A stretch of DNA of 64,000 nt from an uncultured bacterium (GCA_903858755.1 CAIOKC010000027.1:2192-66191); one strand, 5' to 3'; positions 1 to 53,540 are shown, counted from the stretch's first letter. A program made the numbers and translations. Notes: generated by a model from the letters alone, not told the origin.

Positions 1-258
1 TCGCATACTCACGGCGCCTCCCCGGCGCGCAGCCCCGGGCGCGCGCCGCACCCGGGAAGACGACCTCCTCAGCGCGATGGCCGCCCTCGTCGCCGCTCGT
101 TTGGTCCGCGCTCGCATCCACCGCGACGCGGCAAGACCCGCGTCGAGCACCAGGCACCATCACGCGCACATGCACCGCACGCAGCATCCGTCCCGCCTAT
201 CGCGAGCGATGTCGTCCGCATTATCCCCCTCGGCGGCGTCGAGGAGATCGGTCGCAAC

Positions 259-1869
259 ATGACCGCGATCGAGATCGGCGACGACATATTCGTACTCGAC
301 TGCGGTTTCGCCTTCTCCGAAGACGACACGCCGGGTATCGACTACATCCTGCCCAATACCGGCTACCTCGAAGAGCGCCGCAACAAAATCCGCGGTCTCC
401 TCATATCGCACGGGCACCTCGATCACATCGGCGGCATCCCCTACATCATCGATCGCATCGGCAATCCGACGATCTACACCCGCAAGCTTACGGGCAAGAT
501 GATCCAAAAGCGCCAAGAGGAGTTCGCCGGCTCCGTGGTCACGATCCGCGAAGTGGAGCGCGACGAGGTTATCAAGCTCGGCAATCATACGATCCGCTTC
601 TTCGGCGTGACCCACACCGTGCCGGATTCGATGGGCATCATCATCGAGACCCCATGGGGCGACGTGGTGTTTACCGGCGACATCAAACTCAACCATCTCG
701 ACGGTGAGCCTTCCGACGAGGAGAAACGTGAATTCGGCATATTCAAAGACCGCAGTGTCTTAGCGCTCCTCATGGACTCGACGAATGTATGGCAGCCGGG
801 ATTCTCGATACCCGAGTCGACCGTCTACAAGACGCTCAACAACGTCATAAAGGACGCAAAAGGTCGCCTCATCATCGCGATGTTTGCTTCGCATCTCGAA
901 CGCCTCATCCGCGTCGTGCATTTCGCCGAAGAGTACGGCAAGAAGATCGTCATCGACGGCAGGAGTATGAGGACCAACATCGAGATCGCGCGCGAACTCG
1001 GTCTCATCAAGTACAAGGACGACACGGTGGTCGCGGTCGAAAACATGGGTCAGTACCCGAAAGAGCGCATCATCATCCTCGCCACTGGCGCGCAAGGCGA
1101 TGAATTCGCCTCGCTCGCGAGAATCGGCAACAAAACGCACAAGCATATCCGCCTTGAGCCGACAGACACCGTCGTGCTCTCATCGTCGGTCATCCCCGGC
1201 AACGAACGCGCGGTGCAGAAACTCAAAGACAACCTCTCGCGCCAAGGCGCGCACATCATCACCTACCACGCGAGCGATGTGCATGCATCCGGCCACGGCA
1301 ATCGCGAAGAAGCGGCGTGGATCCACCGGCAGATCAAGCCGAAGTTCTTCATCCCCGTGCACGGCTACCACTACATGCTCCGCGTGCATGCCGATCTCGC
1401 GGTCGAGATGGGCGTCGCACCGGATCACATCGCAATCGCCGACAACTCCACGATCGTGGAGATACGAGGCGGCGAGAAAATCTCCAAGCACGCGATAAAG
1501 GCACCCTCGGAATTGCGCGTGGTCGAAGGATCGACCGTCTCCGAACTCTCCGACGTCCTCATGCGCGATCGAAAAGCGCTCGGACAGGAAGGATTCTGCG
1601 TCGTCGTCGCGACGGTGGACCGCCGCACCGGCAAACTCCACAAATCCCCCGACATCATCTCCCGAGGATTCGTATATCTGCGCGACAACAAAGATCTGAT
1701 GGATCAGACGCGCCTCATCATCCGCAAATCAGTGGAAGGCTCAATGCGCAACCCGCGTGCAGCCGATCTCGACCACGCCCGCGACGACCTCGCAGAATCC
1801 GTCGCCCGCTTCCTCTTGCAGCGGACCATGAAACGACCGATCGTGATTCCGGTGATCGTGAGTATTTAG
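259..1869 (+). CDS. rnj: Ribonuclease J (metallo-beta-lactamase / beta-CASP RNase)
   Basis: HGHLDHIGG metallo-beta-lactamase motif, beta-CASP region and C-terminal domain. The conserved RNase J N-terminus (VRIIPLGGVEEIGRN) is encoded in-frame upstream of the ATG at 259 from at least nt 217, with no ATG/GTG/TTG in frame back to nt 1, so the true start is uncertain. Confidence 0.85.
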   Translation: MTAIEIGDDIFVLDCGFAFSEDDTPGIDYILPNTGYLEERRNKIRGLLISHGHLDHIGGIPYIIDRIGNPTIYTRKLTGKMIQKRQEEFAGSVVTIREVERDEVIKLGNHTIRFFGVTHTVPDSMGIIIETPWGDVVFTGDIKLNHLDGEPSDEEKREFGIFKDRSVLALLMDSTNVWQPGFSIPESTVYKTLNNVIKDAKGRLIIAMFASHLERLIRVVHFAEEYGKKIVIDGRSMRTNIEIARELGLIKYKDDTVVAVENMGQYPKERIIILATGAQGDEFASLARIGNKTHKHIRLEPTDTVVLSSSVIPGNERAVQKLKDNLSRQGAHIITYHASDVHASGHGNREEAAWIHRQIKPKFFIPVHGYHYMLRVHADLAVEMGVAPDHIAIADNSTIVEIRGGEKISKHAIKAPSELRVVEGSTVSELSDVLMRDRKALGQEGFCVVVATVDRRTGKLHKSPDIISRGFVYLRDNKDLMDQTRLIIRKSVEGSMRNPRAADLDHARDDLAESVARFLLQRTMKRPIVIPVIVSI

Positions 1870-1884
1870 GTCCCGTAGCGATTC

Positions 1885-2673
1885 TCATATAAGCCCATCG
1901 CGCTTAAGCGACACCAAGGCCGCACCGATGCGTCTTTTTGAAAAAGGGAGCGATTCCGGATCCTGACCCATATGCGCGGCTTTCAGTATGGCGCCGCGCA
2001 CTTCGCGTAAGCTTCCCTTGAATTTGGACTGCTTCGTGTAGACACGAGTGCGGCTGTTGATCTTGATCCCGTTACGTTTCAGGTACGAGCCGTAATCAAA
2101 CAGCGCAGAGTGCCACTTTCTAGGGTCCTGCCCCTTCGCCGCCATCTTTGCAATAGGCAGCACCTCACTATCGGAATATCGGGAGATCGTATCTCCCGAT
2201 ATTGGGAAGAAGTGGTGGATTAATGCAGTGCGGACATTGGTCTCGATGAGGACATCCGGCTCGTTGAAGGCAAAGACGCGGACGGCTGATGCGGTGTATG
2301 GTCCCATGCCGGATAAAGTTCGGAGTACCGCAAGATCCCTCGGTACCTTTCCCTTATGCGCTCGGACGATTTCTTTCGCCGCATCGTGCACATACTTCCC
2401 TCGCCTGTTGTAGCCAAGTCCACTCCAGACCTTGAGCACCATGCCAAGGGGTGCCCTTGCCAGTGAGCGGACATTCGGAAAAGCTTCCAGGAATTTTTTG
2501 TACTTTTCAATCACCCGCGGCACCTGTGTCTGCTGGAGCATTACTTCGGATACAAGAATCTTGTACGGATCCTTGGTCTTGCGCCACGGAAGGTCGTGCC
2601 GTCCGTTCTTTTTGTAGTGCTCCCAGACGATGCGTCTGAAATCCTCGACCTTAGCGGATGTCATACATGACAT
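1885..2673 (-). CDS. HhH-GPD family DNA glycosylase (MutY/Nth-like, no obvious Fe-S Cys cluster)
   Basis: DLPWRKTKDPYKILVSEVMLQQTQV helix-hairpin-helix signature; 262 aa. Confidence 0.6.
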   Translation of the reverse strand: MSCMTSAKVEDFRRIVWEHYKKNGRHDLPWRKTKDPYKILVSEVMLQQTQVPRVIEKYKKFLEAFPNVRSLARAPLGMVLKVWSGLGYNRRGKYVHDAAKEIVRAHKGKVPRDLAVLRTLSGMGPYTASAVRVFAFNEPDVLIETNVRTALIHHFFPISGDTISRYSDSEVLPIAKMAAKGQDPRKWHSALFDYGSYLKRNGIKINSRTRVYTKQSKFKGSLREVRGAILKAAHMGQDPESLPFSKRRIGAALVSLKRDGLI

Positions 2674-3343
2674 CTTTTCTCTCCACTTTTACACTCCACT
2701 TCATACGCTTCGCGTAGCGGTACAGCTTTGAATTCGGATTGAAGCAAATCGGCTTTGCGACCATTTCCAGGAATGGTACATCGGTCTCCGTATCGCCCAC
2801 CCCCACGGAGTGCGCGAGCGTGAGACCTTCTTTCTCGACCGCACGCTTCACGATATTTGCTTTGTTGAGAATGAGGTGCTCATCGATCACTTTGCCGGTG
2901 AAGCAATCTTGCGGACCGATCTCATAGACCATGCCGTATGTCTTATCAAATCCGAGCCGCGGGCAGAATTTATCGAGCACCGTCTTCGGCGAGTGCGACA
3001 CCGCGAGAAGAAAATACCCGCGCGACCGCAGATCCTTGAGCAGATCGCGCGTATAGCGGTAGGTGCGCTTCCACTGCTCATCGACCACCTCTTCCGCGGC
3101 ATCGGCAAGCGCAGAGTAGTGCACGCCCTTAAGGTGCCCGACGAATGCGCGTACGACCGCATCGATGTATTCCTGGTAGTCGCCCTCGCGATCGAGCCAG
3201 CGCACATGCTCGCGCTCATAGACCCTCCTCGTATCCGGAGGGAACACGCCTTTCTCGATGAGTCGATTGACGACCTGTATCAGAAGGCTGGAGCGGAATA
3301 TCGTACCGTCTACATCAAATATCGCCGCCCGCCGTTTCTCCAT
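2651..3343 (-). CDS. HAD-superfamily hydrolase/phosphatase
   Basis: DVDGT motif I near the N-terminus and GDTETD motif IV. Confidence 0.6.
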   Translation of the reverse strand: MEKRRAAIFDVDGTIFRSSLLIQVVNRLIEKGVFPPDTRRVYEREHVRWLDREGDYQEYIDAVVRAFVGHLKGVHYSALADAAEEVVDEQWKRTYRYTRDLLKDLRSRGYFLLAVSHSPKTVLDKFCPRLGFDKTYGMVYEIGPQDCFTGKVIDEHLILNKANIVKRAVEKEGLTLAHSVGVGDTETDVPFLEMVAKPICFNPNSKLYRYAKRMKWSVKVERKDVMYDIR

Positions 3344-19625: not shown

Positions 19626-21314
19626 TTACTGAACCTGGAACGTAAGCGTGTTCGATGTTCCCGAAGCATTGCTGACCGATACCTGGATAGGACCCGGCAT
19701 CACCTGCTGGATGCTCTGCGTGCAAAGCGTGCCCGGAGCCGCAAGGTCGCATGGCGAGACATACCACGGAATAGTGTAGTAGATGGTCGTGCCGTTGACG
19801 CTCGGGACATGCTGCGTGCCGCCCATACCGAAACGCACGGTATTATCGTTGTTGAATCCTGATCCGGTGATGATGAGCTGCGTACCGCGCGCACCAGTCG
19901 ATGGTGAGAGATACGAAATGGTCACGGGATTGTACGTGCCCGAGCCAGAGACAACGACGCTCGCCGAAGCGGAGTTCTGTTGAGCCGAAGCATTGCTCAC
20001 GGTGAAGGTCGGTGAGTACGTGCCATTGGCGTAGTACGTGTGCGTGAAAGTGAGCGTCGTCTGACCCTGCGAATAGATGGTCTGTGGAGCGACCGCGCTT
20101 GCGCCATACACATATGCATCACCCCAATTCACGGACGCGGTAAGATACGAGCCGCCCGGATTATTGACGACCAGCGTCCACGTGCCCTGCACGCCGGATT
20201 GCAGCGTAGTCGGACCGTTCACGCTCGTGATCGACGGCGCAACGCCGCTCGAGATTGAAGTGATGGTAAACGGAAGTGCGTTGCTCGAAAGACCGGCGCT
20301 ATTGGAGACGGAGACATCGTAGGTCCCTGCGACAATCGCCTGCGAGCCGAAGCCGGTGAGCTGCGCGGGAATGACGAAGGACACCGAGCGACCGTCGGGA
20401 GAATTCAGGTTGCCGATGATGCCGTTGCCGAAGTGGACGCTGTTGCCGGTCGTAGAGAACCCGCTACCGAAGACGGTGACCCATGTGCCCACAGTGCCTG
20501 AATTCGGCGAAAGGTAGCTCGCGACCGGAATGCCGTTTGTCGCGCCGCAGCCGTATCCGCCAAACGAACATCCGCATCCGTACGAGCCGCCGTACGAGTA
20601 TGTGCTGCATGGATACTGATTGTATTGGTTGTACGGATAGTACGTGCCGTAGGGGTAGAGCGTGAAGGTCATCTTATTGCTCGTACCGCGCGAATTCGAG
20701 ACGTAGAGTTCCACGCTCTGATTCTGACCATAGGAATACGTGGCGGGAACGACGAACGTGAGCGAGGTGCCATTCGAAGAGACTCCGGAGACCGCTTGCG
20801 AGCCGAAGTAGACGATGTTGTTGATCGGATCAAAACCGATTCCGTAGAGCGTGACCGTGTTGCCCGGTACGCCGGTGTTCTGCGACATCGACGTGATCGA
20901 GAGAGTGCCGGTCGGATACGTGGAATACGCCGGGTAGACAGAAGTGTACGGATACGCATTGAAGTTGTAGCTGAACGGATTGTACGCGGAGGAAGATGCG
21001 CCGAGATATCCGCAGCTCGCGGCATTGATTGCCGCGCGCGTCGCGCTGTCTACCGAGCCGGTCATCGCGAGACCCTGCGCTTGCTGGAAATTACGCACCG
21101 CAGCCGCGGTCGCCTGACCATAGTAGCCGGTTACCATCCACGACCCACCGCCCGGATAATTCTGGGAGACGAGAAAATTTTGAAGATTCGTGACCTGTGA
21201 ACCGCGAGAGCCAGTCGAGAGATCGCTGGTGAGCGAAATGCAGGTCTGCGCAGAGGCGACACTCGCGCCGAAAAGAGCGACTATGAAAAGGGCAGAGGGA
21301 ATAATTTTGTTCAT
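19626..21314 (-). CDS. Secreted surface protein with peptidoglycan-binding domain and IPT/TIG-like S/T/G/Y-rich repeats
   Basis: Signal peptide; PG_binding_1-like segment (GSRGSQVTNLQNFL...VRNFQQAQGLAMTG); long low-complexity Ser/Thr/Gly/Tyr region with repeated beta-domain motifs. Confidence 0.65.
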   Translation of the reverse strand: MNKIIPSALFIVALFGASVASAQTCISLTSDLSTGSRGSQVTNLQNFLVSQNYPGGGSWMVTGYYGQATAAAVRNFQQAQGLAMTGSVDSATRAAINAASCGYLGASSSAYNPFSYNFNAYPYTSVYPAYSTYPTGTLSITSMSQNTGVPGNTVTLYGIGFDPINNIVYFGSQAVSGVSSNGTSLTFVVPATYSYGQNQSVELYVSNSRGTSNKMTFTLYPYGTYYPYNQYNQYPCSTYSYGGSYGCGCSFGGYGCGATNGIPVASYLSPNSGTVGTWVTVFGSGFSTTGNSVHFGNGIIGNLNSPDGRSVSFVIPAQLTGFGSQAIVAGTYDVSVSNSAGLSSNALPFTITSISSGVAPSITSVNGPTTLQSGVQGTWTLVVNNPGGSYLTASVNWGDAYVYGASAVAPQTIYSQGQTTLTFTHTYYANGTYSPTFTVSNASAQQNSASASVVVSGSGTYNPVTISYLSPSTGARGTQLIITGSGFNNDNTVRFGMGGTQHVPSVNGTTIYYTIPWYVSPCDLAAPGTLCTQSIQQVMPGPIQVSVSNASGTSNTLTFQVQ

Positions 21315-21418: not shown

Positions 21419-21880
21419 TTATTCGACCGATAGATCCCCGCGAAACTCCTGCCGGATATGTTTCTGCAACCGTCTATTCCGCGAGTGAGACAGGATACCG
21501 AGATACGATTCTCTGCTCTGCGTAAGCGCCATTTCGTCGATGAGTCCTTGTCGCAGCGCCTCGCTTCGTTCATGCAGTTTCCGCATCATCCGTTTCTTCG
21601 TTCTCGTACGGACGACGCGATGGTGCGGGAAGTGGACAAAGCCGAGAAAGTCGATACCTTTGCCGATCGTACCGAATCGCACTTTGTGCGGGTGCAGGGT
21701 CATAGACAATCGCTGTTCCAAAAACTCGCGTATCAAAGGCAGCAATCGTTCGAGTTCCTTTTTGTCGCGACTCAAAATGACGAAATCGTCGTTGTACCGG
21801 AGATACTGCTTGCAGCCTAACGTGCGCTTTACGTATTGATCCAGCGGATCGAGATAGACATTCGCAAAAACCCGCGAGGA
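21419..21880 (-). pseudogene. 5'-truncated DGR-type reverse transcriptase remnant (only RT motif 5 YxDD onward plus thumb)
   Basis: The frame encodes VYLDPLDQYVKRTLGCKQYLRYNDDFVILSRDKKELERL...GIDFLGFVHFP.... An in-frame TAA stop lies immediately upstream, within the loop of a terminator hairpin. There is no room for the RT fingers/palm domains before the TR. Confidence 0.6.
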
Positions 21881-21889
21881 TTAGTCGCG
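21851..21889. terminator. Bidirectional hairpin (A5-CCCGCGA/TCGCGGG-T5) between the TR and the RT remnant
   Basis: Perfect 12-bp stem AAAAACCCGCGA-CTAATCC-TCGCGGGTTTTT. Confidence 0.5.
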
Positions 21890-21906
21890 GGTTTTTGCCA
21901 ACCGTT

Positions 21907-22021
21907 CGGGAGAGGCAGACGCCAATGAACTCGTTGGTGATCCTCGGGTTGTTCCTGTTCACGTTCGCGCCGTCTCGATCGAAGTTGCCGACATACACGA
22001 GGTTGCCGTCGGAATCACGCC
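21907..22021 (-). repeat. DGR template repeat (TR)
   Basis: A 115-nt repeat homologous to the C-terminal coding end of the gene at 22280..24253. Of 20 mismatches, 18 fall at adenines of this copy on the coding strand. AAC-rich: NFDRDGANVNRNNPRITNEF. Confidence 0.8.
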
Positions 22022-22212: not shown

Positions 22213-22242
22213 ATTTTTCGGATGCATCGGCTCTAACCGAGC
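22213..22242 (-). terminator. GC hairpin plus T-run about 40 nt downstream of the VR/target stop codon
   Basis: GCATCGGCTC-GGTTA-GAGCCGATGC followed by ATCCGAAAAATTTTT on the minus strand. Confidence 0.45.
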
Positions 22243-22279
22243 CGATGCGACTCAAAAGGCAAAACACAAGGCACAAAAA

Positions 22280-24253
22280 TCACATGCGGGAGAGACAGAC
22301 GCCAAGGAACTCGTCGGTGAGCCCCGGGCTGTGCCCGCGCACGAACGCGCCGTCCCGAGCGAAGCTGCCGACACACACGAGGCTGCCGCCGGAAGTACGC
22401 CCTGAAGTCCATGTATATATACTGGGCAACAATTTCTCCGATCGCGCCTGATCGTTGAGGACAAGGCGGTACATCGCTTCAACGGGCCGCTCGCGAGTCA
22501 GCTTCGTGATCGCAAGCTCGCTCAATCGCCTCGAACCCTCTTGCCACTCGGAAATAGTGCTCGACGTGGCAAGGCGTGCCAGTTCCGTTTTCTGTCGATT
22601 GAAGTCATCTATCGCCGTACCGAAGGTCGGAGGAAGGACACGCCCCTTGAACACGTCGTTTTTCAAATGTGCAATTACCGTCTCCGTTTGTTGCACGTAA
22701 TTCTGCGACAGAGAATTGGGCACCACTTCGTCAGAGGTAAGGTGCCAGCCCACGCGGGGCTTCTCGCTTTTGAAAAACTCCTCGTTGTTGTACCAGTCCT
22801 GATCGTAATACATCGGATTACCGTCGTGCGCTTTTGCAAACTTCTCTTTCATATTTTTGAGCGTCACATCGACAATCTCGGACGCACCTTTGCGTCCGGA
22901 CCGTCCCGGCTTCTCCATCACCATCTTGTCGGTGTAAAGAATCAATTTTTGACCAAGGCGCTTTGCGTTTTCCAGATCGGCTCGCGAGAACTGGATCGGA
23001 TCCGTGCGATCGACGCCGAAGACGCGCCTTACATCCGCATATCCGAACACTTTTTCTTGTCCCATGATGCGCTCGGCTTCTGCGATCGTCATACCTTCGA
23101 CCCCTGCCTCGGGTGCTGTCGGCGGAGCTTCGGCTGGTATCTCTTGCGCCCCCAACTCGCGGCGTTTCGTGTTCTGCGGAGGCGCGTAGACGACCGTGTT
23201 GATGAGCGCCTGAATCTTGTCGCGATCGGCCTGATCGCTCACGCGGTTGGTGTAGTAGTAGCGGAGCGCGTCTTGGAAGGTTTTGTTGATGTCGCCGCGA
23301 TAGAATCGTTGCACGAACTCGAATATGCGCTTGTCGTCGCGGGGAGTGGCAAACGCGACCGGTTGCGGCTGACCTCGTGCGATCGTCCGGTTCTCCACTT
23401 CATTCCGCAGCGCTTCCGATACTTCCACGTACCGCGCAAGCAACTCTTCGATGCCAGGAATCGTGGCGACCTCCGCTTCGGAGAGCATTTCGCCTTGCGC
23501 GAGATACTCCTCTTTCGGAATATTAATCCTATTGTCCTTGCCCAAACGTCCCAAAAGACGTGCCGTGCGTGTTTTCTCATCGAGACGATCCGGTTCTTTG
23601 ATATACACGAAGCGATCGATCTGCGCGGGGTCGAGCACTTCACGATCACCATATGAGCCGCCCGGAGGATTCTGCGCCGCGACGATGCGAAATTCGGGAT
23701 GTACTTTCACTATCTCGCTATTATTTTCGGTGAGTACGATCTCGCCTTTGCCGCGAAGGATCGAATCGAGGACTTCGTGCAGACGGCCACGGGTATCGCC
23801 GCGCATGAAATTGTATTCGTCGAGAAAGAGCACCCCGCCCTGGCGAGCCGCTTGCAATATCACGCCGTCTTTCCAGCCGAAGCCGCTTTTGGTGTCTTCG
23901 CGCACCGTCTGCGACCCGATCAGCGTGTCCGCATCATAGTCGTGGCAGTTGGCATAGTACGTTTCTCGGTTGAGTTCGGCGCACATACGATCCACCGTCT
24001 GCGATTTACCAAGACCGGAACCGCCTTCGACAAGCACGGGCTGATTGAGCGAGAGGCCGACCGCGATCTTTTGCGAGAGGCGCAGATCGTATTCGGTGAG
24101 CGTGTCGTTCTTGAAGCGATCGAGATTCGGGACATTCACGCCGCCTACGCCCTTCATCACTTCCGTGCCGAGATACGAGACAGATTTTTCTTTGTCCTCA
24201 AAAGGCGGAGGGGCATCTTTTCGCAACTGTTCCGGTTTGAATCGCTCGATCAT
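22280..24253 (-). CDS. MoxR-like AAA+ ATPase (AAA_5) fused to a C-terminal FGE/C-type-lectin-like domain carrying the DGR VR
   Basis: Walker A VLVEGGSGLGKSQ, Walker B VLFLDEYNF, sensor AAQNP. The C-terminus has an RTSGGS...GVCLSR FGE/CLec-like end containing the VR. Confidence 0.8.
   Translation of the reverse strand: MIERFKPEQLRKDAPPPFEDKEKSVSYLGTEVMKGVGGVNVPNLDRFKNDTLTEYDLRLSQKIAVGLSLNQPVLVEGGSGLGKSQTVDRMCAELNRETYYANCHDYDADTLIGSQTVREDTKSGFGWKDGVILQAARQGGVLFLDEYNFMRGDTRGRLHEVLDSILRGKGEIVLTENNSEIVKVHPEFRIVAAQNPPGGSYGDREVLDPAQIDRFVYIKEPDRLDEKTRTARLLGRLGKDNRINIPKEEYLAQGEMLSEAEVATIPGIEELLARYVEVSEALRNEVENRTIARGQPQPVAFATPRDDKRIFEFVQRFYRGDINKTFQDALRYYYTNRVSDQADRDKIQALINTVVYAPPQNTKRRELGAQEIPAEAPPTAPEAGVEGMTIAEAERIMGQEKVFGYADVRRVFGVDRTDPIQFSRADLENAKRLGQKLILYTDKMVMEKPGRSGRKGASEIVDVTLKNMKEKFAKAHDGNPMYYDQDWYNNEEFFKSEKPRVGWHLTSDEVVPNSLSQNYVQQTETVIAHLKNDVFKGRVLPPTFGTAIDDFNRQKTELARLATSSTISEWQEGSRRLSELAITKLTRERPVEAMYRLVLNDQARSEKLLPSIYTWTSGRTSGGSLVCVGSFARDGAFVRGHSPGLTDEFLGVCLSRM
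22287..22401 (-). repeat. DGR variable repeat (VR) at the 3' end of the AAA+ target gene
   Basis: Encodes SFARDGAFVRGHSPGLTDEFLGVCLSRM*. It differs from the TR almost only at TR-adenine positions (N to S, F, R, H, S, D). Confidence 0.8.
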
Positions 24254-24669
24254 ACTTGTTCGATGAGTCCCACCTTTTCCCGGACGGAGAAGCCGCTTGT
24301 TTCTATTTTCTCAAGATCACCAACGCTCACTAGAACAACAAAATGGGTGTGAAGAGGATCGAACTGTGCAGCCTTGTATTCCATTGTTTCTTTGTCCATC
24401 AGCTGCACCATGCCGCCCCGCTCGGTGTATTGCGCGATGAAATCGTACCACTGTTTCAAGAGCGGATGAGAAATCGTGGCGACCACGGACTTTCCGGCTT
24501 GCATAAGATCGAGAGCATCAACCGGTGAACTGGTTCGGGTAAAGCCCGCATCCACGAGTACTCGCCCCGCATCAATCAGGTCCGTGTATTCGTCGCAGAC
24601 GATGAGAGCCGCCTCTTTTTGCTTCTGCACATATCCGATAAATTCGGACAGACTGTTAGAATTCGTCAT
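24250..24669 (-). CDS. Small hypothetical protein coupled between the vWA and AAA+ genes
   Basis: Its stop overlaps the AAA+ start (ATGA). It shows no recognisable motifs and has a possible small alpha/beta fold. Start is ATG 24669 or TTG 24687. Confidence 0.45.
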   Translation of the reverse strand: MTNSNSLSEFIGYVQKQKEAALIVCDEYTDLIDAGRVLVDAGFTRTSSPVDALDLMQAGKSVVATISHPLLKQWYDFIAQYTERGGMVQLMDKETMEYKAAQFDPLHTHFVVLVSVGDLEKIETSGFSVREKVGLIEQV

Positions 24670-26812
24670 ACCGCTCGATTGCGTCAAGTATAAGGTCTGC
24701 CAGCTTTTCCGCCATCTCCTCTACGCTCACATTCGCTATGCTGTTTGGGTAGTATTGCCGGACGTGCTCGGTGCCGCGTCCTAGCCCGAGGCCGATGAGC
24801 TTTTGGTCGGTTTCCGCTTCAATGCGCTTCACGACTGATTCCAGGTCATATTGCGGTCCCCTGCGGTGAGGGGAAGGGACAGGAAGACCGTCTGATATTG
24901 GAATAAGGAACTTCTCACTTGCATCCGCCTGCGCAAGCCGTTTCGATGCCTCCGAGAGTGCCCACCCGTCGTCGTTCCATCTCGCATGGCCCGTCTTCAC
25001 TTCTTGCAGCATGCTGCCCATGTTCTCACGCACTGCGTCGGAAAGCGGAGCGCTGAATCTGCGGTATTCTCGCAGCTCATCGTGAAAACCCAGAATCTCG
25101 GTTTTTATCGAAAGCCGGTTGAGCGCTTCGGTGAGCGCTACCGCGCCTTGGAATGCGGCGCGAATCTTGTCTCCGCGAGACATGGAGCCGGAGAGGTCCA
25201 CAAGGAGCGTAAAGGCATGGTCTTTTTCGATCGGCTTGTCGCGCCTTTGCCACGCACGGCTTTTTGGCGCAGGAACGTCTTTGGCGATCTCTTGAATGCG
25301 TTTCTGTATGCGGATGCGGGGACCGGACTTCTTGCCGGGCTCCCATCCGCGAGCTTTGCGGGCACGGAATATGTTGCGCAAATCGTTTTCGAGGCGGTTG
25401 ACGACATCCGCGACTTCCCGCAATGCTTCGTCGTATGCGTCTCTTTTGCCTTCGAGAATATCCCGTATCTGGTCTTGCACGCTCGATCGGTCGAATCCTT
25501 CGAGCGGATCGCGGAGACTGGTCGTATCTGTATCTACTGGTTGTTTTCTTTCCGCCACTTGATCTGAAAGTTTACCCTTCAGTTTCTCACCGAGCTTGTC
25601 CTCGATATCCCGAATTGCTTGCCTCGCCTTTTCTTCGAGTTCGCGTCTCTTCTCTTCCGGCAACGATTCAACGTACTCTTTGATCTTTTCTTTCGTCTCG
25701 GGCGAAAGCAAATCCATATCGATCACAACATCGTTGCCGCCTTGCTTTTCGTCTTGATTTGATCGCTTGCCCTGAGCTTGTCGAAGGGCTTCGCGTATCG
25801 CACCCTCGATTTCCTTTTGCTGATCCGGCGTCAGGTTGTCTTTCAATTCCTGCGGCAAATTCGGTTGTCCTTGTCCGCCTTCGCCCTGCTGCATTTCCTG
25901 TATCGCTTTCTGCGTACGCTCGTCTTTCATATCCTCGTCGACGAGCCTCTTGTACTCCGGCCAGATATTGTCGCGGTTGATCTCGTATGAGCGTTTCGCG
26001 TACGCTTCAATCGTCGCTTCGCTTTGATCGGCCTCGTCTTTCGACGGATAGCGCCACCAGGAATCCTGCGCGGCTGAGAGCGTTTTCTGCACGACCGCTT
26101 TCACATCGTCGGGGAGCGTCTTGTCGATCTCAAACTCTTTTCCATGCACTTCGCGGAACCACTGTTTGATGTATTCGAGCCCTGCTCGCGCGAAGCGGGG
26201 CGTGAAACCCAATTTTTTCTTCGTTTTTTTCATTTCAGCCTCGAACTCCTGATCGAGCGTGTATGTCGCGTCGCGGTCGGCGGAGAGCGCAGGATACGCC
26301 TCGGTGATGAAATTGTTGTCGCGAGGATCTTCGATCGCGTTGGACATGAACGCAAACCCCGGTTGACGCCACACGTCGTCGGGAATAAAACTCGTGCGAC
26401 TAATGCGACGGTGCCCTCCTTCATGCGCCGTCACCCAGCGGGAGTACGAGAGCGGCTTTTTGAGCAAATCCTTCGGGTCGACCTTGATGTGGTTGTCCTT
26501 GAAGTTCCAGTGCCAACCCGCGCCCGGACGATTCAGAAGCACGGGAATCTCGAAGTCCTTGCCGATAAAGTACGCGATGGACGATAGAACGCGCTGCTTG
26601 TACCTGATCTCTTGTCGCTGCGACTCGTTGAATCCGGCAAGTATCTGTTCGTCCTCGTTGCGATTTGGTCCCTCCTGTCCTCGCGGTCTGCGCGGTCCCA
26701 TTGCTTCGAGACGGTTCAAGCCTTTCATGGGCGAATTGTGGCACATCAAAAGCCCCTCTGACAGCCGGTATGGGATAACCATCAACATTGCTCTTTGAAA
26801 CGGCTGTTGCAA
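24656..26812 (-). CDS. vWA (von Willebrand factor A) domain protein with N-terminal HEGGH zincin-like motif and Lys/Glu-rich coiled-coil
   Basis: C-terminal vWA domain with MIDAS DLSGSMS. N-terminal WVTAHEGGHRR (HExxH). Central charged low-complexity region. Start is TTG 26812 or ATG 26788. Confidence 0.75.
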   Translation of the reverse strand: MQQPFQRAMLMVIPYRLSEGLLMCHNSPMKGLNRLEAMGPRRPRGQEGPNRNEDEQILAGFNESQRQEIRYKQRVLSSIAYFIGKDFEIPVLLNRPGAGWHWNFKDNHIKVDPKDLLKKPLSYSRWVTAHEGGHRRISRTSFIPDDVWRQPGFAFMSNAIEDPRDNNFITEAYPALSADRDATYTLDQEFEAEMKKTKKKLGFTPRFARAGLEYIKQWFREVHGKEFEIDKTLPDDVKAVVQKTLSAAQDSWWRYPSKDEADQSEATIEAYAKRSYEINRDNIWPEYKRLVDEDMKDERTQKAIQEMQQGEGGQGQPNLPQELKDNLTPDQQKEIEGAIREALRQAQGKRSNQDEKQGGNDVVIDMDLLSPETKEKIKEYVESLPEEKRRELEEKARQAIRDIEDKLGEKLKGKLSDQVAERKQPVDTDTTSLRDPLEGFDRSSVQDQIRDILEGKRDAYDEALREVADVVNRLENDLRNIFRARKARGWEPGKKSGPRIRIQKRIQEIAKDVPAPKSRAWQRRDKPIEKDHAFTLLVDLSGSMSRGDKIRAAFQGAVALTEALNRLSIKTEILGFHDELREYRRFSAPLSDAVRENMGSMLQEVKTGHARWNDDGWALSEASKRLAQADASEKFLIPISDGLPVPSPHRRGPQYDLESVVKRIEAETDQKLIGLGLGRGTEHVRQYYPNSIANVSVEEMAEKLADLILDAIERYDEF

Positions 26813-28288: not shown

Positions 28289-29296
28289 TTATTGCCCAGC
28301 ACTGGAAGATCCTCGCACGAAATCTTTCAGGTCGTCTCGTATTTTTAGTGCTATGTGCTTCGCGAAAGAGACCGGCACGGCATTGCCTATCATTTTGTAG
28401 CCGTCTGCCACGTTTTCGTATTTAAGTATAAACGTGTCGGGAAATGCCTGGATTCGCGCACACTCGCGGACCGAAAGCCGCCTGTATAGACGCTCCTTAC
28501 CGGGCACAAAAATCCGCTTGTTTTGTTCGACAAATTTCATCTTCGGAGCTTGCGGATGGATCGGGGCGTGTCGCCCTCCGGCTTGAATCGTGAACGAAGG
28601 CTCGTCCCACCCTCGAACACGGTTGCGGGACATGTAGATGGTGGAAAACCCGCCCGTCATATATTCGTGATTTGGTACCTTCAGCGACCTGTTTGCTTTG
28701 TTGGACGGTTTTGCGGGCACGGCATCTTTCAAATCGGAGATCGCATCGCCGAGGACAGGTCTTTCCGAAAGCGGTCGCGGGGGAATGAAATCTCTTCCGA
28801 CTTTCTTGTGATAGCCGACGATAATGACGCGCCACCGCTCTTGCGGCACTCCGTAGTCGTTGGCATTCAACAGGTTGTAAGTGACGCGGTACCCCACGTC
28901 GCTAAAACTCTTCAGGATATCCTCGAAAGCACTTTTATGACGCGGATGCAGAATGCCCGAGACATTCTCGGCTAGGAAAAACAGCGGCTGCTTGTCGCGA
29001 AGAACGCGGATGTACTCATAAAAAAGCTTGCCTCTGCTGTCGTGTATCCCCCTTCCCGCTCCCGCTTCGCTCCAACTCTGGCATGGCGGACCCCCTATGA
29101 TCCCGACTGCTGCGGGCACATCTTCAGATGGCACGTCGATAATACTGCGCTTGTCGAGATGCGTATGGGGGAAATTGTGCTCGAATGTCGACCATATAGA
29201 AGGATCGTATTCATTCGCCCAGTCCACATCAAAACCCGCCTGCTCGAAACCGAGGTCGAGACCGCCAGCTCCCGTAAAGAGTGAGACGAGTTTCAT
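28289..29296 (-). CDS. DNA (cytosine-5)-methyltransferase
   Basis: Motif I FTGAGG, motif IV GGPPCQSWS, ENV (LAENV), QERWRVIIVG. Start trimmed to ATG 29296, which overlaps the stop of the upstream gene (ATGA). Confidence 0.85.
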   Translation of the reverse strand: MKLVSLFTGAGGLDLGFEQAGFDVDWANEYDPSIWSTFEHNFPHTHLDKRSIIDVPSEDVPAAVGIIGGPPCQSWSEAGAGRGIHDSRGKLFYEYIRVLRDKQPLFFLAENVSGILHPRHKSAFEDILKSFSDVGYRVTYNLLNANDYGVPQERWRVIIVGYHKKVGRDFIPPRPLSERPVLGDAISDLKDAVPAKPSNKANRSLKVPNHEYMTGGFSTIYMSRNRVRGWDEPSFTIQAGGRHAPIHPQAPKMKFVEQNKRIFVPGKERLYRRLSVRECARIQAFPDTFILKYENVADGYKMIGNAVPVSFAKHIALKIRDDLKDFVRGSSSAGQ

Positions 29297-30147
29297 CGTG
29301 TATATCGTACCAGCTTCGCTCGGAGCGACTTCGCCGCGTTGTTCGGGGATTGTATCTCGATATCTTCGATACGAAGCCCTGGGATCTTGGAGTTCTCGAG
29401 TGTTTTTCGGCTTTCTTTCGGGAAAGATTCGTATTTTTCTTTGAGCATCACTGCCGTAAGAGCAAAGTCCGCTTCCGACGACACCTCCGGAATATGCCTG
29501 AAGACTCTCGAAGGGTGCTGTATTGACCACATGCCCCGTATACGTAAATCCGTTATCCCTAGAGGATCAACTCTGTTCACTCTCCCCAATTCGTTGGTCT
29601 CTCCAAATTCAATATCCGGCAAGGCATCAATGCCGCCAGCTATAGAGTCTCGTATCTTTTCATACGTATCTCGACTCGCTGCATAACAATCCCCATACAC
29701 GAACCATAGAGACTTTACCCTATTGTCCTCAATGCCTCCTATCGCATAGAGCATATCCTTCCTCGTCCACTCTTCGCACTCACGGCAACTTGCTGTAATC
29801 ATGGGACTGTCTGCGTACAGGTAGTCTTTTGGATACGAGCTGTTGAGAGCGATCCCATTCGAGCGTCTGCCGATGTACTTTTTCACTTCGATCGCATCGC
29901 CCTCTCGTATGATAGCGTCCGGAGGGTTGTTCTGATTTCCCAAGTACGAGAAAAACTGAGGGTAGATTTTCTCTTTCTCCGACAGCCTCTTTCCAGAAAG
30001 AGTGCCGCTGAACGCGTCTTTGACGTAAAACTCCAAAGCGGCGCCCATCGCATTTGCTCGATTGGGAGCGGTCTTTCGGGGTGATGCCAGACTAGGCGCT
30101 GGCTCCGATGCGATATTCCGTATAGCAATCAACAAATCGGTTTTCAT
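29293..30147 (-). CDS. Putative type II restriction endonuclease partnering the m5C methyltransferase
   Basis: Translationally coupled upstream of the methyltransferase. Contains a PD-(D/E)xK-like segment (GDAIEVKK). Family not assignable by eye. Confidence 0.45.
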   Translation of the reverse strand: MKTDLLIAIRNIASEPAPSLASPRKTAPNRANAMGAALEFYVKDAFSGTLSGKRLSEKEKIYPQFFSYLGNQNNPPDAIIREGDAIEVKKYIGRRSNGIALNSSYPKDYLYADSPMITASCRECEEWTRKDMLYAIGGIEDNRVKSLWFVYGDCYAASRDTYEKIRDSIAGGIDALPDIEFGETNELGRVNRVDPLGITDLRIRGMWSIQHPSRVFRHIPEVSSEADFALTAVMLKEKYESFPKESRKTLENSKIPGLRIEDIEIQSPNNAAKSLRAKLVRYTR

Positions 30148-45886: not shown

Positions 45887-46039
45887 GAGACTATGTTACC
45901 AGCTGCGCGGAAGCCCTGCCTACCGGCAGGCAGGCGTAGCCGCCGCGACTCTGGCACATTGCATTCCAGGATTCGGTTGCTCTAAGCCGTAGCCGCCGCA
46001 TCGCCAAAGATTTCAGAACTATCATATCAAAACGAAAGA

Positions 46040-46085
46040 CCCCTTGGATTCCGGCATAGTGCCAGAGTGTCCAAGGGGACAATGC
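46040..46085 (-). terminator. Rho-independent terminator downstream of the methyltransferase gene
   Basis: On the minus strand: GTCCCCTTGG-loop-CCAAGGGGTC followed by TTTCGTTTTG. Confidence 0.5.
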
Positions 46086-46288
46086 GCCCGCCGAGGGCGG
46101 GCGCACAAAGTTGCAATCGGTCAGTTGCGGGAGCCAAGCCGGACGCCATCGCGCCAATCGTCGTCGAGTGGCCACGTGTAGACGTTCCACTCACCGCAAA
46201 TATTTGATTGCTTCTTGGTGCTTGCCAGCGTTCCGCAAGTCGTCGGCAATATTCATCATCCCCTGAGCTTCGATGTCTCGCATATCGA

Positions 46289-49200
46289 TTACAGGGCAGT
46301 TTCAACAATCCTAACCTCCTCGTCTGTAAGGTCGTAAAGCTTATACACGAGCTGATCAATTTGCTTTTCATAAACTTTAACCTCTTCTTGTTTCTTGAAA
46401 TTCTCCAAATAATCGCCGGATGTGGTAATTGCCAAGATTTTATCAACGATTTCAATAAAGGGCTTTTGTTCAGTTTCTGAAACTCTTTTAATTGGGACTT
46501 CTGATAGTGGTTGCTGATAAAGCTCCAACATTTCTCCCTTTCTTTTGCCTCGCTGATACAACCAAAAATAATAGAGCCTAGAATTGAGCAGTGCCAACAC
46601 ATATTTAAGCGAAAATGACTTATCTTTCTCTGTAATAAAATATACATCCGCGCTCGCATACCAGTCGCTCGCGTTATATCCAAACGTATTGCTCGTACTG
46701 CGTTGGGGCGCGACTATTTTTGCGCCTTCAAATATGTCTTGTTGTCTAGATCTATGAAGGTCAAACCAGCGATACGCATATTGGGAAACAATCGCCTCAA
46801 ATTTGGAAAGGTGTTTGAGAATATTCGGGTATGTTTCTATATTCTTAATTGTTTCGCCGTTTGAGTAAATAACGGCAGAGCCTGTTTTATCTTGGGTATA
46901 CCACTTGTGCACGTCAGAGTTCTTAAACCATGGCTTCAAAATTGTTTTCTCGTCATCAGTTAAATTGATATTTTGCATTTCTTCCTCACTTAGAATAAAG
47001 ATACCGTCTCCAATGCGTGCGCTCACTTTATGTTTTTCAAGGTGTTTCCTGGATACTTTATCAGCGCCGGTAACAATTCCTTGGTTTGCATTGCAAATCG
47101 TCCCCAAGGCCTCACCCTGGCTCTTTAGCTTATTTAATGTCGTTTGTATTGGATTGCGACTTTCTATTGAGGTTCCCGATAGCCGAATATTGTAATTATC
47201 GCCATCGTATAAATCGTCTTGAGCTACTCTAAAGTATTCGGTTTTTTCGTCTTGGCCACCAACAATTCTTTCCAAGATAATCGAAGTGGCATCACCAGTG
47301 CGTTTGGTAATACAAGTTTCGGCTATAACCTCTTTATAGTGCCCTTTACTCAAAATACTCACCATGTTGTGCTGGCCTAGGGCAGATTTGAAAACCTTGA
47401 GTTCGTTAAAGTTAACTAGCTTTTTGACTGTCGCCCTATTTTTAAAATCCTCTCGAAGCTTTCGTGCACCCAATGCTGTTGGATAGTAATTCGTCGTTAT
47501 ATACGCCATCACGCCGCCGTTGCATAAGTAATCCAGAGCTGTGTGAAAGAAAAAGTAAAAAAGGTCCATCTTGCCTTGATAATATCTCTTCCCTAAGGGA
47601 GAATTCTTGATTTTCCTAAACATGTCCTTGTGTCCCTTCTCCCCAATATACGGGGGGTTCCCGATAACAATATCGAATCCCCCCTTTCTATAGACTGCGG
47701 GAAAGAAATACCTGGTGTCGAAAAAACCAACCGGCTTGTTTTGGAAAATATTTTCGTAACTTCCCCATAGCTCGTTTATTCGCATGCGTTCATCGGTCTC
47801 CGCTTCATTCTTCTTCGCCAACAATCGTTTATGATTTCTATCTTTGATTCCGCTAAATGACTGTACGATACTCTCCAGCTCTTTCTTAGTTTTTTCACTA
47901 ATAAGCTGTTGCAATTTTCTTGCGGTGTCCAATTTGTGCACTTGGTCGACCGGCGCGAAGTACTCGTCAATAAGCTCCCCAAGAGCCGCAGCGAATTCAT
48001 CACCGAACAACGGACCTTCGTGCACCGGTGGCTTTATGAGCGTATTGGCGCAAACAAATTTGAAATCTAGATTCGGTAGCGGCTCAATTCCTCTGTTCGG
48101 AGCACTATCATCGACTTGTTGATCCACAACGAGTGTCAAAAAGCATCGTAGCCGCGATATATCAGTTGCGACGGGTTGAATATCTATACCGTGAATACAT
48201 TCCCTGATGACCCCGAGTTTTCGAACATATGTAAGGTTATGTTTTTGAAGTTGCCTGCGAGCCTCCGCAGGAAATTTGTTGAGATAGATTGAACAATCGG
48301 GGTCAAGAATCCCTAGCATATGTACCATGCGCTGAAGCACGCCTATTGGAAATGCGCCGGAACCACAGGCTGGGTCTAAGACAGCAGCATTATGAATAGC
48401 GTCAACGAGTACTTTCCTGTCATTGATAGAAAAGGGATACTGAACATCATCCTCCAAATCGTACGATGAAAGCACGCGTAATTTCTCTTCAGGTATTCCG
48501 GTCTTTGTCTTTAGGTGAGCAACGAGCGACTCTTCAACCATGAAGTCCACAATTTCTCTGGGTGTGTAAAAACTTCCTGTCGCTTTTCGCGCACTTGCGC
48601 CTGTTTCCGGGTTTACTTCTGCCAAAAGGTTTTCAAAGATACGACCGAGCATCTCAGGGTCGATTGAAAGCTCGGTATCGATTGACGTATTTTCGTCAAT
48701 TGTGAAGTTATATTCCTCAAAAATACCGAGCATCTCCATAAACCACCCATCCGGAACAGCCACAACGCCGCGTCGCTCACTCAACCCGGTAGTGCGGTTA
48801 AATTTGTGATTATCCTCGGCGTGGTCCTGAAACAATCCTCCATTGAGAAACGGGACCTTGTTGAACAATTCTGAATGCGCGAAAAATGCGGGCCGAGAAC
48901 TTGGAGGCTTATTGAGCACCTCAAAAAAGAGAGGTGCGCACAGGGAGTGGTAATAATCCGAATTCTTTGAGACGGCGGCAACAGAAAGAAGCTCGTCAGG
49001 GATTAATGGAACACCCTGACTACCTTTCTTCTGTTTAAGAAACCAGCAAAAAACTAACCGGCCGATGAGCCGAATTGCAAAATTTGCATACACTGTGTCA
49101 TCCGCGCTTCCAAGTTCAAGGGTCCTCTCGTAAGTTTCTGCGCGCCTGCCTTCTCCTCTTGTGCCCCCAACGAGTTTTGAATATTGAGCGGCTATTCGCG

Positions 49201-53004: not shown

Positions 53005-53047
53005 AAATCTTCATGTTTGGGAATCACGGCACAAAACCCGCCTACGG

Positions 53048-53079
53048 GCGGGTTTTGTGCGACGGGCGTGTCCGTTCGG
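53048..53079. terminator. Perfect 14-bp bidirectional hairpin
   Basis: GCACAAAACCCGCC-TACG-GGCGGGTTTTGTGC. Confidence 0.5.
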
Positions 53080-53179
53080 GCGCTATCTCGGCGTCGCAGT
53101 TCGAATCTTACTGAACCTCAATCGTACCTCCTGCCAATCAAGCTCTACCTACTAGGACACTTTGTCAGTTAGCCACTTT

Positions 53180-53503
53180 TTACTGCTCGTTGCAGACTGT
53201 ATTGAATCTGTTTCTCAAGTCAGTCTCTTCTTGCAGCCTTGCGTCTCGGTTTTCAGAAGAAATATGAGCAAATATGTGTGTCGCCCCATTTTGCCTGGTG
53301 CAGTTCCATTTGTGATGAGAAGGCGTGCATCGTGTGCTCAAGTCCTCACATTCACCGATATATACTGGTGTCCAGCTGTTCTGTTGCAGACTCTTGGCAA
53401 AAATATAATTACCGGGCTTAGCGACAAATGGTTCATTTATCGGATACCCCCAGTAACGGTAACTTTTGCCAGATTTGCCGTGCCAATCCATTTCTACTGC
53501 CAT
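53180..53503 (-). CDS. Small GIY-YIG-like nuclease domain protein (tentative)
   Basis: PGNYIFAK...WTPVYIGECEDLSTR resembles the GIY...YIG...R/E core; 107 aa; low GC. Confidence 0.35.
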   Translation of the reverse strand: MAVEMDWHGKSGKSYRYWGYPINEPFVAKPGNYIFAKSLQQNSWTPVYIGECEDLSTRCTPSHHKWNCTRQNGATHIFAHISSENRDARLQEETDLRNRFNTVCNEQ

Positions 53504-53540
53504 AATCTGTATTCATTTCTCAATTAGTAATTCGACCGAA

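Follow-up and report, generated by a model that had tools for sequence, protein, structure and literature searches.

A CPR gene cassette for a zincin-like vWA protein, a small protein and an AAA_5 ATPase with a predicted lectin-fold variable domain, beside a decayed DGR

Introduction

What would a hypervariable lectin-fold domain do on a MoxR-class ATPase, and which partners would it work with? The question is raised by a locus in an ultrasmall (CPR) bacterium. It lies within a 64-kb stretch of DNA (the window) in which three overlapping genes, all on the minus strand, are followed by the repeats and the remnant of a DGR.

Organization of the locus

The three genes are as follows.

24656-26788, minus strand: gene for a zincin-like (HEGGH)/charged-linker/vWA-MIDAS protein (open reading frame)
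24250-24669, minus strand: small-protein gene, 139 aa (read from sequence)
22280-24253, minus strand: gene for an AAA_5 (MoxR-class) ATPase with a C-terminal C-type-lectin-fold (CLec) domain, 657 aa, the DGR target (open reading frame, Pfam)

The vWA/MIDAS partner gene shares an operon with the AAA_5 ATPase gene, and the genes overlap. Direct reading of the sequence showed that the small gene shares 14 nt with the vWA gene and, at its other end, an ATGA (24250-24253) with the ATPase gene, the same junction that an earlier note on this DNA had described. The open reading frames were found where that note had placed them, apart from corrections of the starts. The small protein has 139 residues from the ATG at 24669, not 140. 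The start of the vWA gene is ambiguous: it may be a TTG at 26812, an ATG at 26788, or a Met, conserved in homologues, at 26728. The protein is 710 aa long from the ATG and 718 aa long, as in the earlier note, from the TTG. An NgoPII restriction-modification system is located directly upstream of the cassette in the window.

The ATPase and its C-terminal domain

23159-24181, minus strand: conserved module of the ATPase (aa 25-365; Walker A, Walker B, sensor-1)
23609-24040, minus strand: AAA_5 core, aa 72-215 (Pfam match)
22283-23101, minus strand: FGE-type CLec domain, aa 385-657

The AAA_5/MoxR assignment made in the earlier note is borne out by a Pfam AAA_5 match over residues 72-215, which scored 63.3 bits (cutoff 22), and by conserved motifs. 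The Walker A (GGSGLGKS, aa 77), Walker B (LFLDEYNF, aa 142), and sensor-1 (AAQNP, aa 192) motifs were invariant among 20 homologues (alignment A3). The ATPase has 106 homologues, and the family is modest (327 clusters at 50% identity) and not universal. The closest solved structures in a PDB profile search were the AAA domains of Midasin, followed by CbbQ, NorQ, and CobS. The NCBIfam CobS model (TIGR01650) reached 37.5 bits, far short of the 558.55 that it requires.

The predicted structure of the C-terminal domain shows a CLec fold that is nearest to TvpA and Mtd. Across the family, CLec subtypes have been swapped repeatedly on one ATPase scaffold, and some members carry helical-repeat C-termini instead or have no C-terminal domain at all.

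Does the protein work at the cell surface? One alternative holds that the locus encodes an adhesin-like variable protein, surface-exposed or secreted, for the attachment of an episymbiont to its host in the manner of Mtd and TvpA, with the ATPase and the vWA protein serving export or assembly. The closeness of the fold to TvpA and Mtd is consistent with it, and DGRs in CPR have reportedly been proposed to help host attachment. However, a sequence scan of the three proteins found no TM segment and no signal-like N-terminus, AAA+ domains require cytoplasmic ATP, and no conserved secretion genes were seen near the cassette in the neighborhoods of relatives. A role as a surface adhesin is thus highly improbable.

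The TR/VR pair and the decay of the DGR

22287-22401, minus strand: variable region (VR), final ~38 codons of the ATPase (TR/VR repeat)
22224-22248, minus strand: 10-bp hairpin, GCATCGGCTC ggtta GAGCCGATGC, about 32 nt past the ATPase stop
21907-22021, minus strand: template repeat (TR), AAC-codon-rich (repeat search)
21866-21891, minus strand: hairpin and T-run right after the TR, CCCGCGA ctaatcc TCGCGGG TTTTT (sequence)
21419-21868, minus strand: DGR reverse transcriptase (RT) remnant, C-terminal ~150 aa (alignment to the RT of the related locus L005)

The earlier note had placed a VR in the ATPase C-terminus, and a TR/VR pair was indeed found. The VR takes up the final 115 nt of the ATPase gene and falls within the predicted CLec fold; the TR lies 380 nt downstream. 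The two repeats are 83% identical over 115 nt, and 18/20 mismatches fall at TR adenines; for a TR of about 23% A, a binomial calculation puts the probability of such a bias at about 5e-10. There are 27 TR adenines in the span homologous to the VR. When the VRs of three close relatives were compared, 21/27 of these positions were variable versus 23/88 of the other positions. In 10 loci, an adenine-biased TR/VR pair was found where the ATPase gene ends. Besides the VR, no further TR-like copies were found in the 64-kb window.

The 10-bp hairpin past the ATPase stop also aligned in L005 and in a second relative, L003. It sits where a DGR target-site hairpin would, and by analogy with known DGR biology it may function as one. 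A candidate IMH is the GC-rich end GGCGTCTGyCTCTCCCG at the 3' end of the VR, which is conserved in relatives.

Can the DGR still diversify its target? The hairpin and T-run after the TR are conserved in L005 and L003, and the window diverges beyond that hairpin. In relatives, avd lies between the TR and the RT on the opposite strand; L003 and L005 carry an intact avd, and the RT is intact in L003, L005, L006, and other relatives. The window instead passes from the post-TR hairpin directly to RT motif 4 (alignment A2), with the deletion junction at the 3' edge of the hairpin. The RT remnant begins at FANVYLDPLD...RYNDDF, has no native start codon, and lacks RT motifs 1-3. In the RT reading frame of L005, residues 228-374 are the part to which it aligns (E 2e-57); about 190 N-terminal residues are missing, and the 5' ~57% of the RT is deleted. 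Neither an Avd homologue nor a second RT is present within the 64-kb window. The spacing here is equal in three assemblies, and the VR is identical across samples, in P0001 (3 contigs) as in P0228. Judged from the sequence, the DGR is decayed and non-functional as encoded, a deletion having taken avd and the 5' part of the RT. The earlier note's reading of a DGR-diversified domain needs correcting on this point for the window, as the RT is truncated, avd is deleted, and the VR does not differ across independent assemblies. Because of this deletion, the VR would be frozen unless another DGR acts in trans.

The partner proteins

24659-25231, minus strand: C-terminal vWA domain (Pfam CobT_C; MIDAS and SDG)
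25181-25198, minus strand: MIDAS motif DLSGSM (sequence motif)
25349-25921, minus strand: Lys/Glu-rich charged linker joining the zincin-like and vWA domains (composition)
25883-26668, minus strand: N-terminal zincin-like domain (motif, predicted structure)
26411-26425, minus strand: HEGGH motif (sequence motif)
26309-26332, minus strand: candidate third-ligand motif EDPRDNNF (sequence motif)

A vWA domain with an intact MIDAS, as read in the earlier note, was confirmed by the Pfam CobT_C/vWA match (E 3e-18) and the DLSGSM motif. Further support comes from PDB profile matches to the CobT vWA (E 9e-18), the Midasin MIDAS (1e-7), and NorD (6e-5); NCBIfam gave no match to the protein. The DxSxS of the MIDAS was found in 94/103 representatives. 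The protein has homologues in >500 clusters, at about 50-55% identity across >92% of its length. With about this identity across CPR lineages, the protein is unusually well conserved.

The charged linker contains 19% K+R and 23% D+E over aa 290-480. It is poorly conserved in sequence in the conservation map and is likely to be helical or coiled. The N-terminal domain appears to be zincin-like, and gluzincin-like by its motif. The metallopeptidase-like HEGGH reported earlier is present; among representatives that reach down to about 30% identity, 98/104 retain both it and the E-D 26 residues downstream. In the predicted model, the HExxH lies within a helix (73-89) that is preceded by a three-stranded sheet. 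The small 139-aa protein had no match in Pfam, NCBIfam, PADLOC, PHROGs, or the PDB.

Conservation of the cassette

Synteny was assessed in 38 non-redundant related loci, mostly from CPR bacteria and of many lineages. A homologue of the small gene was immediately upstream of the ATPase gene in 35/37 loci, the zincin-vWA gene was upstream of it in 24/27, and DGR genes were found in the flank of the cassette in 19/24. The neighborhood of vWA, small, ATPase-CLec, and DGR genes pointed out in the earlier note is conserved by these counts. The DGR was missing from the flank in 5/24 loci, among them L002, an 84%-identical relative. The existence of DGR-less loci and of CLec-less family members indicates that the core machine needs no ongoing diversification.

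Conservation of the cassette over 38 non-redundant loci means that the juxtaposition is not due to chance. Metagenome assemblies carry a general risk of joining unrelated genes, and just this risk speaks for the idea that chance adjacency or an assembly error brought the three genes and the DGR together. The idea is refuted by synteny over the 38 loci and by three agreeing, independent assemblies of the strain; with the 14-nt and 4-nt gene overlaps also against it, its probability is negligible.

In another alternative, the cassette encodes a MoxR-vWA chaperone with a housekeeping task, either the insertion of a metal cofactor or a midasin-like release of ribonucleoproteins or assembly factors. 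The client would be endogenous, the CLec domain would be no more than an adaptor for it, and the cassette would take no part in conflict or sensing. The cassette's closest characterized relatives (CobS/CobT, NorQ/NorD, CbbQ, and Midasin), the unusual conservation of the vWA protein across CPR lineages, and the DGR-less variants all fit this explanation. However, a constant client would give no reason for the DGR linkage in 19/24 loci and would leave the repeated swapping of CLec subtypes unexplained. The CobS score is far under the equivalog cutoff, no CobN, NOR, or Rubisco genes were found among the scanned neighbors in the window or the called genes of L001-L005, and the modest size and non-universal occurrence of the family also count against such a role. 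Altogether, a housekeeping chaperone is quite unlikely.

Genes that neighbor the cassette showed no consistent defense content, and the flanks vary by locus and are often housekeeping. Recombinase and methylase genes are located near L003. PADLOC returned no match to a defense system. These observations bear on the possibility of an abortive-infection or immune sensor, in which an invader molecule bound by the CLec domain would activate the ATPase and the zincin domain would attack proteins of its own cell rather than the ligand. Parallels with DGR-diversified putative antigen sensors in vWA-MoxR and STAND systems (PMC7159879, PMC10907252) argue for it, as do the NgoPII system and the genes near L003. 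The PADLOC result and the variable flanks argue against it, and the zincin-like domain is the only recognized domain of a toxin/effector kind. Such a sensor is possible, and we regard it as unlikely.

Proposed working

The best explanation, toward which we lean slightly, is a conserved cassette, occurring mainly in CPR/Patescibacteria, in which genes for a zincin-vWA protein, a small protein, and an AAA_5 ATPase-CLec protein are followed by a TR, avd, and RT, and which would work as a sensor and effector. All components would work in the cytoplasm. The ATPase may assemble into a hexamer of the MoxR type with six CLec domains on display, and a DGR could alter their binding surface at the roughly 27 positions that are templated by adenines. 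The partner would dock onto the ATPase ring through its vWA/MIDAS domain, in the manner of NorD on NorQ and of CobT on CobS. Pulling or twisting driven by ATP would then reach the zincin-like domain at the N-terminus of the partner by way of its long charged linker. This putative peptidase could act on the ligand captured by the CLec domain, or capture could switch it on; in either case the coupling would depend on ligand. The small protein would be an obligatory third subunit, possibly an assembly factor, regulator, or inhibitor. The role of the cassette may lie in defense, conflict, or host interaction.

Comparison with known systems

The cassette is a member of an already reported class of CPR DGR targets. 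The ATPase-CLec fusion is thus not an uncharted architecture: PMC10907252, citing Paul 2017, gives AAA ATPase-CLec proteins as the most frequent target of DGRs in CPR and proposes the ATPase as a transducer, and UVR4/Midasin-like DGR targets matching the Midasin AAA domain were described by Wu 2018 (PMC5758913). The present copy resembles these targets in host group and in the fusion of an AAA_5 ATPase to a C-terminal diversified domain, but differs in its truncated RT and lack of avd. The CLec fold was left undecided for the UVR4 domain in PMC5758913, whereas here it is supported by structure prediction. No description of the upstream zincin-vWA and small genes was found in the literature on CPR ATPase-CLec DGR targets, and these conserved partners appear to be undescribed.

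The vWA-MoxR ternary conflict systems (Kaur 2020, PMC7159879; Doré 2024, PMC10907252), with which the earlier note drew a parallel, also combine a MoxR ATPase, a vWA protein, and a third gene, likewise have a DGR diversifying an FGE-type CLec, and often include a peptidase. In them, however, the CLec/FGS is on the vWA component, whereas here it is on the ATPase and the vWA is a C-terminal domain. As third component they have a large protein of the VMAP, iSTAND, or FtsH type that bears a trypsin, caspase, or similar domain, in contrast to a 139-aa protein here, and the peptidase-like (zincin) domain of the cassette is on the vWA protein. No VMAP, iSTAND, or FtsH component was present among the neighbors scanned. 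The hosts also differ, being multicellular cyanobacteria, actinobacteria, and Chromatiales rather than CPR bacteria; CPR were left out of the multicellularity statistics in the survey of Doré 2024 (PMC10907252). By its components and CLec placement, the cassette is not one of the published ternary types.

TvpA (Treponema denticola), Mtd (Bordetella phage), and TaqVP (Thermus) are DGR variable proteins of solved structure. They serve as lipoproteins of the cell surface or as receptor-binding proteins of phages and have no ATPase, and the CLec domain shares only 10-13% identity with them. The strongest summed match to the ATPase was to the AAA_5 domains of Midasin/Rea1 (E 1e-57 over 3-4 domains), a score inflated because Midasin has six repeats. 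The Midasin MIDAS matches the vWA profile (E 1e-7), and a long charged linker from motor to MIDAS is common to both. Midasin/Rea1, which functions in 60S ribosome maturation, holds its six AAA domains in one chain of ~4,900 aa, whereas the cassette has one AAA module per chain, a MIDAS on a separate protein, and extra lectin and zincin-like domains.

Identity as an aerobic cobaltochelatase CobS/CobT was rejected on the TIGR01650 score (37.5 versus 558.55 bits), the lack of an NCBIfam match for the vWA protein, and the absence of CobN among scanned neighbors. NorQ-NorD and the metal-insertion machine CobS-CobT(-CobN) nevertheless share the same plan: beside the gene for an AAA_5 ATPase lies a second one, whose product has a functional domain at the N-terminus, a long linker, and a MIDAS vWA at the C-terminus. 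They differ in having client genes (NOR or CobN), while the cassette has no cognate client gene; here the vWA protein has a zincin-like domain at its N-terminus, and a hypervariable lectin-fold domain is added to the ATPase. In NorQD, a vWA finger inserts into the AAA+ pore and the linker is remodeled (PMC13036017), and in CobST an adaptor shaft is inserted into the ring (bioRxiv 10.64898/2026.07.21.739949). Components of NorQD and CobST are among the closest solved relatives of the ATPase and the vWA protein, and by analogy with them a sensor-to-protease mechanism is plausible.

Composition of the cassette

The cassette consists of three overlapping ORFs, all of which are present on the minus strand at the coordinates that the earlier note had given:

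24656-26788 or 24656-26812, minus strand: zincin-vWA protein, upstream ORF
ATG at 24669, minus strand: small protein of 139 aa, middle ORF
22280-24253, minus strand: ATPase-CLec protein of 657 aa, most downstream ORF

The small gene starts within the 3' end of the upstream gene (14-nt overlap), and its stop codon overlaps the ATPase start as ATGA. This is the ATGA from which the earlier note had read translational coupling; the proposed length of 140 aa is replaced by 139 aa, counted from the ATG at 24669.

The ATPase was previously assigned to the MoxR/AAA_5 type of AAA+ ATPases on the basis of the motifs GGSGLGKS, DEYNF and AAQNP. Pfam bears this out: an AAA_5 domain at aa 72-215 reaches 63.3 bits, where the cutoff is 22. 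In an alignment of 20 relatives, no variation was seen in GGSGLGKS (Walker A, aa 77), LFLDEYNF (Walker B, aa 142) or AAQNP (sensor 1, aa 192). Among solved proteins, the ATPase module best matches the AAA domains of Midasin, with a summed E of 1e-57 across several repeats, and then CbbQ, NorQ, and CobS. A cobaltochelatase identity was ruled out because the score fell far below the CobS equivalog cutoff. The C-terminus of the family is modular: it consists of one of several unrelated subtypes of the FGE-type C-type-lectin fold (CLec) with tails typical of diversity-generating retroelement (DGR) targets, of helical repeats, or of no additional domain at all. Some family members (P0005-P0009, about 1045-1094 aa; P0052, P0063, and P0099) have a second ATPase module in tandem with the first and/or, in place of the CLec, a C-terminal helical-repeat array with a motif like GLDSxEAWxxRExL. 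Short members of 373-414 aa end without a C-terminal domain, and at times they share a contig with a long member.

The zincin-vWA protein ends in a vWA domain (Pfam CobT_C, E 3e-18) with the MIDAS motif DLSGSM. Ahead of this domain come a linker rich in charged residues (19% K+R, 23% D+E) and, in the N-terminal part, HEGGH. In other words, the C-terminal vWA with an intact MIDAS, the charged Lys/Glu region and the HEGGH described from the sequence at first reading were all recovered. For the vWA profile, the nearest matches are CobT, the MIDAS domain of Midasin, and NorD. Of 104 representatives, some with as little as about 30% identity, 98 retain HExxH together with a Glu-Asp 26 residues downstream; DxSxS is retained in 94 of 103. 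A zincin-like metal site in the N-domain is well supported, and the domain is a putative peptidase. The protein has >500 homologue clusters at about 50-55% identity and nearly full length, mostly with Patescibacteria labels. High conservation of this kind raised the idea of a universal CPR core gene. The N-domain, however, is almost confined to this architecture (typically proteins of 650-860 aa), and the idea was rejected because its family comprises only 327 clusters at 50% identity.

The small protein had no match in Pfam, NCBIfam, PHROGs, PADLOC, or a PDB profile search. None of the three proteins displayed a transmembrane segment or a signal-like N-terminus, and for this reason we take them to be cytoplasmic.

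A template repeat and a variable region

The 3' end of the ATPase gene and the DNA downstream of it contain the following elements:

22287-22401: last 115 nt of the ATPase gene
22224-22248: 10-bp hairpin after the ATPase stop codon
21907-22021: copy of the 115 nt, 380 nt downstream, 83% identity
21866-21891: second hairpin, with a T-run, after the downstream copy

Eighteen of the 20 mismatches between the two copies fall at adenines of the downstream copy (chance about 5e-10 by a binomial estimate). This identifies the downstream copy as the template repeat (TR) and the end of the ATPase gene as the variable region (VR). When the window gene was compared with relatives of 84% and 83% identity, 21 of 27 TR-adenine positions differed, as against 23 of 88 other positions, a pattern that reads as the footprint of past diversification. 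Both hairpins are conserved in relatives. The scan for promoters and terminators found no sigma-70-like site and only a chance level of terminator-like sites; the post-TR hairpin was not flagged by it and was identified by direct reading of the sequence.

Decay of the retroelement

In two relatives with an intact retroelement (L003 and L005), the post-TR hairpin is followed by the accessory gene avd on the opposite strand and then by the reverse transcriptase (RT) gene. In the window, the hairpin runs straight into RT motif 4 (FANVYLDPLD...RYNDDF). What is left corresponds to residues 228-374 of the L005 RT reading frame (E 2e-57) and has no start codon of its own, and no other RT, Avd, or TR copy was found in the 64-kb window. 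Could the truncation be an assembly artefact? An independent assembly of the same strain (L001) is identical across the deletion junction and in a third the genes across it are spaced in the same way, so this explanation was rejected. At least three contigs encode exactly the window ATPase protein, and the sole variant in its 90% cluster, K227I, lies outside the VR. As a result, the VR, and with it the receptor sequence, appears fixed in the window lineage. The DGR of the window is a dead remnant.

Directly downstream of the remnant, a gene at 19626-21314 (minus strand) encodes a secreted protein that combines a peptidoglycan-binding domain with IPT/TIG repeats. Relatives have other genes at that position, indicating a deletion or rearrangement boundary nearby. 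An ORF of 120/121 aa antisense to the remnant (21458-21820, plus strand), annotated by gene callers in all assemblies, is most likely a spurious call.

Loss of the retroelement is not confined to the window. In L002, an 84%-identical ATPase-CLec gene (131-3309) is followed by an unrelated secreted protein, and TR, avd, and RT are all absent downstream; here the DGR is gone altogether while the target has been kept. Four further loci have an RT gene with an in-frame stop (L035 6960-7553, L036 6146-6739, L039 9062-10036, and L058 7775-8629), and the copy in L037 is near-identical yet intact (325 aa). The split genes point to recurrent RT decay or, possibly, to recoding. Taken together with L002, they make DGR loss seem recurrent across related loci.

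Conservation and spread of the cassette

The earlier note proposed looking for the same neighbourhood in related genomes. Loci around ATPase relatives (16 genomic and 46 metagenomic), together with 5 found via close homologues and the window, gave 38 non-redundant loci, in which the neighbourhood proved to be conserved.

Genes accompanying the ATPase gene, among loci whose flanking DNA reaches far enough
small gene immediately upstream: 35/37
zincin-vWA gene on the upstream side: 24/27
flanking RT and/or avd: 19/24

In ten loci, a TR/VR pair with adenine bias places the VR at the 3' end of the ATPase gene. Six related loci (L006, L007, L015, L016, L019, and L020) have an extra stand-alone CLec copy of about 325-350 aa, for example at L006 6194-7171, L007 10076-11122, and L015 6492-7493. 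Except in L007, where no TR/VR pair was detected for it, this copy serves the same TR as a second target, again with adenine bias. The conserved synteny and the recurrent TR/VR targets mean that the three genes and the DGR are a system and not a chance juxtaposition.

Cassettes were also seen in MAGs labelled Bdellovibrionales/Bdellovibrionota, Gammaproteobacteria, and Dadabacteria (L009, L012, L014, and L017). Either the cassette has spread horizontally beyond CPR or the bins are contaminated.

Restriction and defence genes in the window

Just upstream of the cassette, also on the minus strand, are genes for a C-5 cytosine methylase (28289-29530) and a restriction endonuclease of the NgoPII type (29293-30147), separated from it by two unknown ORFs and the gene for a cyclophilin-type PPIase. 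Further away, a low-GC island (~46000-54000; 43-47% GC against about 55% elsewhere) contains two large genes, encoding an Eco57I/MmeI/TaqI_C-type methylase-endonuclease (46289-49702, 1137 aa) and a PLD-SNF2 helicase fusion (49699-53004, 1101 aa). The island looks like a horizontally acquired defence module.

A possible mechanism

How might the three proteins work together? In NorQD, the vWA domain extends a finger into the MoxR hexamer pore, and the client is acted on by the twisting of a linker, powered by ATP hydrolysis (PMC13036017). In CobST, the adaptor pushes a shaft into the ring and holds the client on the opposite side (bioRxiv 10.64898/2026.07.21.739949). On the pattern of these two systems, the ATPase would form a hexamer displaying six variable lectin-fold domains that capture ligand, the MIDAS-vWA domain would dock on the ring, and force passing through the charged linker would position or activate the zincin-like domain. 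The small protein may be a third subunit of this machine. Our evidence shows a parts list, synteny, and motif conservation; how the components are coupled is inferred. Candidate roles for the machine are defence, conflict with hosts or phages, and regulation.

A bolder reading, which we consider unlikely, is that the cassette works as an ATP-driven targeting machine, programmable by a retroelement, in which a zincin protease destroys or processes whatever cytoplasmic molecule is caught by DGR-rewritable receptors. The MoxR hexamer would carry six such lectin-fold receptors, the protease would be MIDAS-docked and linker-tethered, and the small subunit would restrain or assemble it. If true, the bacteria with the smallest known genomes would possess an antibody-like recognition module coupled straight to proteolysis. 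The earlier note's picture of a DGR-diversified ATPase sensor triggering a vWA, possibly protease, effector survives in its domains and its conserved DGR linkage; a working retroelement in the window does not. For the window genome itself the message is more modest, namely a dead retroelement and an apparently fixed receptor.

Comparison with known systems

DGRs are unusually abundant in CPR bacteria. To our knowledge, no function is known for their commonest target there, a cytoplasmic AAA ATPase-CLec protein.

That the ATPase-CLec fusion is the commonest CPR target is stated in the passage of PMC10907252 that cites Paul 2017. The target has been reported as a Midasin-like match (PMC5758913), and Doré et al. 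suggested that its ATPase transduces signals sensed by the C-terminal region (PMC10907252). A literature search whose reach stopped short of Paul 2017 found no description of the zincin-vWA or small partner. In PHROGs, similarity was limited to phage CobS-like and CobT-like proteins; the phage collection contained the vWA part only (CobT-like vWA domains), without the zincin-vWA architecture. PADLOC returned only weak generic AAA matches.

In published vWA-MoxR ternary systems, DGRs are coupled to FGS domains; that survey excluded CPR from its multicellularity statistics and described no CPR system (PMC7159879). DGR coupling to an FGS/CLec domain is common to those systems and the cassette, whereas the topology and the third component differ. 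The ATPase-CLec fusion was already known; the zincin-vWA and small partners appear to be new within the literature searched. The target is almost always co-encoded, in overlapping genes, with a MIDAS-vWA/HExxH zincin-like protein and a putative small third subunit, and this near-constant association gives what was an "unknown variable protein" a place in a defined machine of three proteins. Should the coupling prove real, the cassette would represent a new topology of DGR-diversified sensing, in which the motor carries the receptor and the adaptor carries the protease, and a possible scaffold for programmable protein recognition.
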